Positions 28,243 to 29,229 of a stretch of DNA of 64,000 nucleotides are shown in pieces. The stretch is taken from the NCBI GenBank assembly GCA_013115125.1, contig JABANN010000028.1:1-64000 (forward strand), written 5' to 3'. The notes below the pieces were generated by a model. That model was not told the origin of the DNA. It saw only the letters and a program-made list of their open reading frames with translations, and ran no database searches. Positions within the stretch are counted from its first letter, which is position 1. The number at the start of each line of letters is the position of its first letter. Source of the DNA: Perkinsus olseni (Eukaryota). Both the position numbers and the translations under genes were made by a program.

Positions 28243-29229
28243 ATGTCCGGTGAAAGGAAAGTCTACGTCGGAAATATTGAGGAAGGTGCTCCCTAGGGGT
28301 GGTTGCGTCTCCCCATTAGTTGGAGTCCTGCGGTCGTGGGCGTCATTGACGAGCTTCTTGACCCTTTACTACCGTTGTTTTACAGGCACTCGAGAGGAGG
28401 AGCTCGAGAAGGTGTTCAAGCGATATGGCGGACTAGAGTCCGTCTGGGTGGCTCGGAATCCTCCGGGATTTGCTTTCGTTGTAAGTAGCGAGGCCGGTGG
28501 TTGTCGGTGTATCATTTGACGTAGCTGTGGTTGATGATGTTGTTGTTCTGATTTCCTTGTTTACAGGGCTGAGTGACTGAGAGGGTTAGCCTCCTGCTCG
28601 TCTGGTCCTGTTACGAGCTGCTAGAGATACAGCATCATTCTCCGCTACATTACCACCACTGAATCGTCGCCTATCTGCATCATCATACGACAGAGAAATA
28701 GCCACAGCCGACCTGCTGCTTCACGATCATCATCAAATCTTCATCGTCCGCTGCTCCCTGCTACTTTGTCATCCTCCTCGCTGTAGACGTTTGAGGACGC
28801 TCGAGACGCTGATGATGCCTGCAGAGGAGAAGACGGCAAGGATTTCAATGGACGAAGGTAAGCCTACTCAACCCGCCCGAGGATGGCAGATTCCCGGATC
28901 GTCTATTCCAGCATTCGAGTCGAGATCGCTAGACGCAAGTCTGGTAAAGGCAAGGGAAAGGGCAAGGGGTTCAGCAGTTGGTATCGTGGTGGTAAAGGCG
29001 GCGACTACGGTGGCGGCTATGGGGGCTATGATGGTGGATACGGTGGCGGCCGTGATGCTGGGTACGGCGGTGGTTACGGCGGTCGTGATCGCAGTAGAAG
29101 TAGGTGGCTTGGGATTGGCATTGAGATGAGGATCCGTTCCCTGCCTTGAAAGGTACCAGCAGAGATCGCCGTAGACAGAGGACAAGATCCCGCTCCGGTT
29201 CAAGGGATAAGAATTTCGATAGACGTTGA
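28243..29229 (+). CDS. SR splicing factor, SRSF3/SRSF7-like, paralog 1 (RRM, Gly/Tyr-rich linker, RS tail)
   Basis: [57 protein letters not shown]...IRVEIA; GGGYGG repeats; RDRSRS tail. Confidence 0.92.
28567..28584 (+). promoter_or_regulatory. Candidate 18-nt poison exon or alternative 3' splice site in SR paralog 1 intron 28481-28786
   Basis: tttccttgtttacag|GGCTGAGTGACTGAGAGG|gttagc, with TGA in all three frames. Confidence 0.6.

Follow-up and report, generated by a model that had tools for sequence, protein, structure and literature searches.

The window analysed here is a 64,000-nt stretch of DNA from Perkinsus olseni, of a genus that parasitises shellfish (contig JABANN010000028.1 of assembly GCA_013115125.1, positions 1-64,000, + strand), and at about 28.2-30.4 kb it carries two tandem genes for serine/arginine-rich (SR) splicing proteins, both on the + strand, which we refer to as paralog 1 and paralog 2. 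We assembled gene models for the pair from the splice joints found in public RNA contigs, combined with translation (Table 1). In each gene a single long intron interrupts the RNA recognition motif (RRM), and it is the splicing of this intron that we describe below.

Table 1. Coordinates of the two SR genes and of the elements of their long introns (positions in the window; MFE, minimum free energy)
Feature	Position	Strand	Basis or remark
SR paralog 1, coding part	28243..29229	+	RNA-contig joints, translation
Paralog 1 exons	28243-28285, 28386-28480, 28787-28857, 28912-29099, 29153-29229 (stop 29227-29229)	+	joints
Long intron 2, paralog 1	28481..28786 (306 nt, phase 0, GTAAGT...TGTAG)	+	joint 28480>28787 in X1, X2, X4
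Proximal mini-intron, paralog 1	28481..28566 (86 nt)	+	joint 28480>28567 in X2
Kept segment, paralog 1	28567..28786 (220 nt)	+	X2 contig 28567-28816 unbroken; retention contigs
18 nt after inner acceptor, paralog 1	28567..28584	+	TGA in three frames; in-frame stop is codon 2, 28570-28572
Predicted hairpin (119 nt)	28527..28645	+	MFE fold of 125-nt window starting 28524
SRSF3 pentamer cluster, 12 matches	28633..28773	+	pentamer count versus shuffles
SR paralog 2, coding part	29344..30360	+	joints, translation
Paralog 2 exons	29344-29389, 29443-29537, 29879-29949, 30002-30090, 30137-30212, 30264-30360	+	joints
Long intron 2, paralog 2	29538..29878 (341 nt)	+	joint 29537>29879, 4/4 runs
Kept segment, paralog 2	29624-29878 (255 nt)	+	first in-frame stop 29759

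Both predicted proteins are 157 aa long, with the RRM at the N-terminus. Exon 2 of paralog 1 matches the Pfam RRM_1 family (E=1e-5; 25.7 bits, the cut-off being 20.7); exon 3 alone scores 15.1 bits, which is under that cut-off. Past the RRM, a Gly/Tyr-rich stretch and then a short arginine/serine (RS) tail of ~30 aa follow in paralog 1, and a full RS domain in paralog 2. By definition, an RS domain is C-terminal, spans 50 aa or more, exceeds 40% Arg+Ser and contains RS/SR repeats. The best 50-aa window of paralog 2 contains 72% Arg+Ser and 26 RS/SR dipeptides and falls well within this definition, and that of paralog 1, with exactly 40% Arg+Ser and 8 RS/SR dipeptides, sits on its border. The P. 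marinus ortholog (model P0003) has its best PDB match in the SRSF7 RRM (2hvz, E 2.5e-21), followed by the SRSF3 RRM structures (2i38 and 2i2y, E about 1e-19), with about 40 of 66 residues identical to 2i38 in a hand count of the alignment. The CCHC zinc knuckle typical of SRSF7 and the plant RSZ proteins was not found in either translation: each protein contains one Cys, and therefore the architecture resembles SRSF3 rather than SRSF7/RSZ. Judged by these comparisons, both genes encode SRSF3/7-like single-RRM SR proteins.

A peptide from exon 4 matches proteins named 'serine arginine-rich splicing factor' from P. olseni (at 97% and 94% identity) as well as from P. marinus and P. chesapeaki, which places this DNA in Perkinsus, nearest to P. 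olseni. In one P. chesapeaki model of 1859 aa (P0004) the two SR paralogs come in an identical order, with the same genes following downstream, and the tandem pair therefore predates the split of these species. Five metagenome loci at 32-40% identity to P0003 each gave one unbroken match, with no intron to compare.

The long intron of paralog 1 directly follows RNP1, exon 2 ending in GFAFV (28480) and exon 3 beginning with TFED (28787). Its 306 nt agree with the original prediction for this locus, which was made from the letters alone, but the remaining introns of the gene measure 100, 54 and 53 nt and not the 'about 50-80' nt given there. Introns in this genome are mostly ~50 nt, and to remove intron 2 whole, as is the case in the productive mRNA of paralog 1, the splice must reach an acceptor 306 nt away. 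The intron contains 18 AGs in all. We scored the AGs lying beyond the first 30 nt, and an inner acceptor with its AG at 28565-66 (15 of the 20 preceding nucleotides are pyrimidines) was surpassed by just one of them, the acceptor in use at 28786 (16 of 20), so that the site which had been singled out as a strong internal acceptor ranks second among the AGs scored. This inner acceptor divides the intron into a G/T-rich mini-intron that contains zero C-rich motifs and a C-rich, G-poor remainder. The 18 nt that follow the inner acceptor do contain TGA in all three frames, as had been noted, an arrangement shared by only 24 of the 127,964 18-mers of the window on both strands (0.019%).

For evidence of splicing we used assembled RNA contigs from four runs (X1, X2, X4 and X15) from four studies; all 20 of the 20 listed public runs contain part of the locus, and joints were read in these four. 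Spliced joints were present in 4/4 runs, indicating RNA content. Contig depths are rough and rare forms are lost from contigs, and stretches lacking cover in a single run, such as the normal paralog 1 joint in X15, were not counted as evidence. The normal joint of paralog 1 (28480>28787) was present at a depth of 89 in X1, 530 in X2 and 7 in X4, with none listed for X15. The inner joint (28480>28567), which had been predicted, was found in X2 at a depth of 508 and in none of the other three runs; the X2 contig that carries it consists of 30 nt of exon 2 followed by 28567-28816 without a break. The predicted acceptor at 28566 is in use in X2.

The second unproductive form that we observed was retention of the whole intron. 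Contigs that run through intron 2 of paralog 1 were present in three of the four runs (28451-28816 in X1 and X4 at depths of 8.9 and 5.5, and 28452-28855 in X15 at a depth of 206; none in X2), and introns 3 and 4 were spliced out of the retaining contig in X15. A bin lying wholly within intron 1 (28302-28377) had a depth of 0 in all four runs; retention is thus confined to intron 2 and is no sign of DNA carry-over. Together, the inner joint and the retention contigs bear out the earlier proposal that the intron after RNP1 is a site of unproductive splicing. Stop-bearing forms account for about half of the paralog 1 joints in X2 and for the sole contig spanning the region in X15, and the share of unproductive forms reaches tens of percent. 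As the contig is unbroken past 28584 and a joint from 28584 to 28787 was found in none of the four runs, this is a case of alternative 3' splice-site use and not of a cassette exon. We conclude that exon 3 is extended at its 5' end by 220 nt through an alternative 3' splice site, that this extension is the poison element, and that retention of the whole intron accompanies it.

Paralog 2 has the same layout. Its long intron, set among introns of 53, 52, 46 and 51 nt, has the same position and phase as that of paralog 1, and the exons that flank the long introns are 58-63% identical between the paralogs. It contains an inner acceptor at 29623, exactly 86 nt into the intron as in paralog 1, which is weak (9/20 pyrimidines) and is used in two of the four runs. 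The normal joint (29537>29879) was recovered at depths of 20.6 (X1), 1111 (X2), 7.2 (X4) and 170 (X15), and the inner joint (29537>29624) at depths of 4 in X1 and 57 in X15, with none in X2 or X4. The contig 29624-29908 was unbroken in both runs that use the inner site, and pieces of the kept segment were present in all four.

The alternative forms encode early stops. In the inner-joint form of paralog 1, the first in-frame codons past the joint are GGC TGA (28567-72), and the full-retention form has an in-frame TGA at 28517. These stop-bearing forms have a coding capacity of ~47-58 residues, and two exon junctions lie downstream of the premature stop (28857/28912 and 29099/29153). The premature stops of paralog 2 are at 29759 and 29790. 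In both genes, the stop-bearing forms truncate the protein within the RRM and further exon junctions remain downstream. Thus, unproductive isoforms with premature stops exist in both paralogs and are specific to the long intron.

The part of the paralog 1 intron downstream of the 18 nt had been described as dense in SRSF3-type words, and we compared motif counts with those in 1000 dinucleotide shuffles. Within 28585-28786, the claim held for CATC (7 versus a shuffle mean of 2.9, p=0.009; two short CAT runs supply part of this count) and TCATC (5 versus 1.1, p=0.001), but not for TCTTC, with 1 match and no enrichment (p=0.45). The general form C[AT][AT]C occurs 11 times in this interval (versus 6.4, p=0.035) and 14 times in the kept part of paralog 2 (versus 5.4, p=0.001), and the upstream 86-nt parts contain 0 (paralog 1) and 1 (paralog 2). 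We also counted five pentamers taken from SRSF3 iCLIP (individual-nucleotide crosslinking and immunoprecipitation) data (UCAUC, CUUCA, CAUCA and CAUCU, along with UCAAC; PMC10321290). The kept part of paralog 1 contains 12 matches against a shuffle mean of 3.2; none of 1000 shuffles reached 12, and 0.2% of 2552 window tiles did so. For paralog 1 the motif enrichment is strong, for paralog 2 it is weak or mixed, and SR protein may bind these sites in the kept segments.

We also observed a predicted hairpin at the inner acceptor of paralog 1, which was first spotted in a fold of the whole intron and then tested by unbiased sliding windows. The hairpin has a minimum free energy of -49.3 kcal/mol (z -3.98, 200 shuffles), and it was the top outlier among 101 sliding windows over 27999-30499 (25 shuffles each; z -3.89, with the next at -2.14). 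The local ensemble gives a pairing probability of ~1.0 for the AG of the inner acceptor and for its neighbouring bases. The basal stem of 11 bp pairs 28533-43 with 28629-39, joining a GAUGAUG stretch of the mini-intron to a CAUCA-containing stretch of the kept part, with the CAUCA site included in the stem; a further predicted stem pairs 28563-70 with 28604-11. Folds of the two whole long introns were not unusual (z -0.39 and -1.10), and the 86-nt parts alone fold worse than their shuffles in both paralogs. From this modelling, the hairpin may gate the inner acceptor of paralog 1.

From these results, we consider it probable that the 306-nt intron serves as a module for unproductive splicing in a Perkinsus gene of the SRSF3/7-like type and that the tandem paralog has the same module. 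Productive mRNA arises when the 5' splice site at 28481 is joined to the distal acceptor at 28786, bypassing the nearby acceptor, which, we propose, would in paralog 1 normally be masked by the hairpin. An SR protein, either the gene's own product or that of its paralog, would bind C-rich CAUC-type sites in the kept segment, which in paralog 1 is present in both the inner-acceptor and the intron-retaining isoforms. Its binding would favour the proximal site or block removal of the intron, with the choice set by SR dose. The two alternative outcomes that occur are splicing to the proximal acceptor at 28566, with the last 220 nt of the intron kept, and intron 2 left unspliced. The stop-bearing RNAs would yield no functional protein, so that SR output would be limited by negative feedback. 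These RNAs may be unproductive through nonsense-mediated decay (NMD) or through nuclear detention, and nuclear detention or plain diversion of pre-mRNA would serve as well as NMD.

Several observations weigh against this proposal. The inner acceptor of paralog 1 was used in only one of the four runs, and the estimates of isoform abundance inherit the roughness of contig depths and the loss of rare forms from contigs. The stop-bearing forms are abundant, unlike what efficient NMD would leave, and for this reason we are cautious in suggesting that NMD degrades them; in Plasmodium, another alveolate, NMD has been reported to be inefficient (PMC10449492). No run or experiment connects the balance of isoforms with NMD or with the level of SR protein. 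The hairpin is predicted from one sequence, without covariation, and the inner acceptor of paralog 2 lacks an equivalent (z -0.31). The pentamer count in paralog 2 (4 versus 1.5, p=0.087) is not significant, and 20% of window tiles reach 4. In addition, sequence similarity between the two long introns is at chance level, and only architecture and composition are common to them. Their global alignment gave no convincing similarity beyond the splice sites, an ungapped comparison of the two 86-nt parts gave 30 matches over 86 positions, a figure equal to that of shuffles, and 6- to 8-mers shared between the kept parts were at chance level, so that high conservation was found in neither part.

Some of these points would also be expected if the long intron were simply slow to be removed and a chance AG were sometimes used, with no regulatory role. 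Such splicing noise would fit the absence of common sequence in the two long introns, the poor inner acceptor of paralog 2 and the variation between runs in the type of unproductive form, and retention could represent late removal of the longest intron. However, noise does not readily account for the preservation in both paralogs of an intron of unusual length, matching in position and phase, despite their limited exon identity, in a tandem pair that P. chesapeaki likewise possesses, or for an inner joint that falls exactly 86 nt in at both genes. It also leaves unexplained the enrichment of C[AT][AT]C in both kept parts next to 86-nt parts that are nearly empty of such words, and unproductive forms at a level of tens of percent. 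In SR genes of plants and animals, this layout has been proven to serve regulation (PMC1636356, PMC4379411). Overall, we regard noise as an unlikely explanation.

A more specific version of the module that we favour is a structure-gated self-sensor, which we put forward tentatively and hold to be doubtful. Here the hairpin would pair the strong proximal acceptor, leaving the distal, productive one to be used, until rising SR protein opened it and switched splicing to the proximal site with its immediate stops in three frames, with CAUC-type sites in the 3' arm of the hairpin and just downstream receiving the SR protein. In a lineage with possibly weak NMD, such feedback would act by diverting pre-mRNA to dead-end, perhaps nuclear, transcripts and not through decay.

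The original prediction was of a different element, a poison cassette micro-exon of 18 nt (28567-28584) with its acceptor at 28566 and its donor at 28585. Its acceptor is used in X2, a GT directly follows the 18 nt, stops in three frames are rare in so short a sequence, and a minor form could have been lost from the contigs. The predicted donor, however, was not seen in use: the joint that would connect it to 28787 is absent from all four runs, no letters were reported between the two sides of any joint, and the X2 contig passes straight over 28584/28585 at a depth of 508. In addition, this donor (agg|GTTAGC) has T at +3, where 9 of 9 used donors of the two genes have A or G, and paralog 2 is without an equivalent, its first stop lying 135 nt past its inner acceptor. 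With the donor unused and the contig continuous over 28567-28816, the 18 nt behave as the beginning of an exon extension, and a micro-exon is very unlikely. That the intron instead hosts a small RNA, either a C/D-box small nucleolar RNA or an RNA derived from the hairpin at 28527-28645, is most improbable, since its box-like words (UGAUGA at 28532-37; CUGA at 28548, 28569 and 28577) are only ~40 nt apart with no terminal stem by eye, a search of Rfam to E 10 over 27000-31500 returned three chance-level matches and none on the + strand of the intron, paralog 2 is without such words or a hairpin at the matching place, and the observed joints would be left unexplained, however unusual the stability of the hairpin.

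The surroundings of the SR genes gave further observations. P0004 matches window 28243-40982 in order, from SR paralogs 1 and 2 through the downstream genes to a ULK-like kinase, and it looks like a fused gene model in which conserved synteny is visible. A partial P. olseni model (P0002) has an N-terminus that matches, within window 28158-28385, the translated 5' leader and, on reading the sequences, intron 1 of paralog 1, and its start is probably mis-annotated. With one fused 1859-aa model and one model that reads through an intron, the public annotation of the locus seems wrong. The poly(A) site of paralog 1, placed at ~29278 by a poly(A) loose end in X2, lies just 66 nt upstream of the paralog 2 ATG, and X1 and X15 both have contigs over the spacer 29229-29344; Perkinsus is known to add spliced leaders. 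Elsewhere in the window, arrays of a 24-nt (8-codon) tandem repeat at 53374-55183 and 55906-56484 (75 and 24 copies, 83-88% matches) lie within long + strand open reading frames (53043-55199 and 55508-56620) that probably encode highly repetitive proteins. An unbroken 609-aa open reading frame at 19051-20880 contains a full-length Phospholipase B domain (Pfam E=2.7e-109) and is intron-free amid an otherwise intron-rich stretch, and positions 4001-12000 have a sustained positive GC skew of 0.15-0.29 with G+C up to 0.58.

Unproductive splicing of SR genes is already documented in animals, plants and fungi. Among the matches listed for literature on Perkinsus alternative splicing and nonsense-mediated decay there was no SR-gene report; alternative splicing in Perkinsus is cited for cyclin (PMC5029490). 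The Perkinsus module, with its 86-nt mini-intron, 220-nt kept part and one hairpin, offers a compact short-intron system in which to study the choice between proximal and distal acceptors.

In layout, the nearest analogue is the long alternatively spliced intron within the first RRM of plant RS, RS2Z and SCL genes, which is autoregulated in atRSZ33 (Kalyna et al. 2006, PMC1636356). In the plant genes as described there, and in Perkinsus, one intron far longer than the others splits the RRM, alternative 3' splice sites within it lead to an extremely truncated product, and paralogs keep its position but often not its sequence. However, the plant intron lies between RNP2 and RNP1 and that of Perkinsus directly after RNP1, the proteins belong to other subfamilies in another supergroup, and in Perkinsus autoregulation is what we infer.

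Human SRSF3 is the closest protein relative. Like the Perkinsus proteins, human and mouse SRSF3 has a single RRM and, judged by sequence, belongs to their subfamily of SR proteins, and its stop-bearing isoform, which contains poison exon 4, lowers the amount of productive mRNA. Mammalian SRSF3 recognises sites of the CAUC type and favours the inclusion of this poison exon in its own transcripts (PMC10321290). That element is a 456-nt ultraconserved cassette exon with both splice sites in use, and it truncates the protein at 124 aa in the RS domain; the Perkinsus event is an alternative 3' site or retention inside the RRM (~47 aa), and its element lacks sequence conservation between the two paralogs.

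A third parallel comes from fungal SRSF5 orthologs, which have a retained intron that is NMD-sensitive in Neurospora (Lareau & Brenner 2015, PMC4379411). They resemble the Perkinsus genes in that an organism with short introns splices an SR gene unproductively by keeping an intron and not by way of a cassette exon, and they differ in SR subfamily and intron position and in having a demonstrated dependence on NMD, which in Perkinsus would be at most expected. The lack of common sequence in the two Perkinsus introns fits the picture of flexible, repeatedly evolved events drawn in that work. As an RNA-backed case in Perkinsozoa, with both tandem paralogs affected, the locus extends this habit of SR genes to the dinoflagellate-apicomplexan side of the tree and agrees with the view that it has been reinvented repeatedly at different introns.
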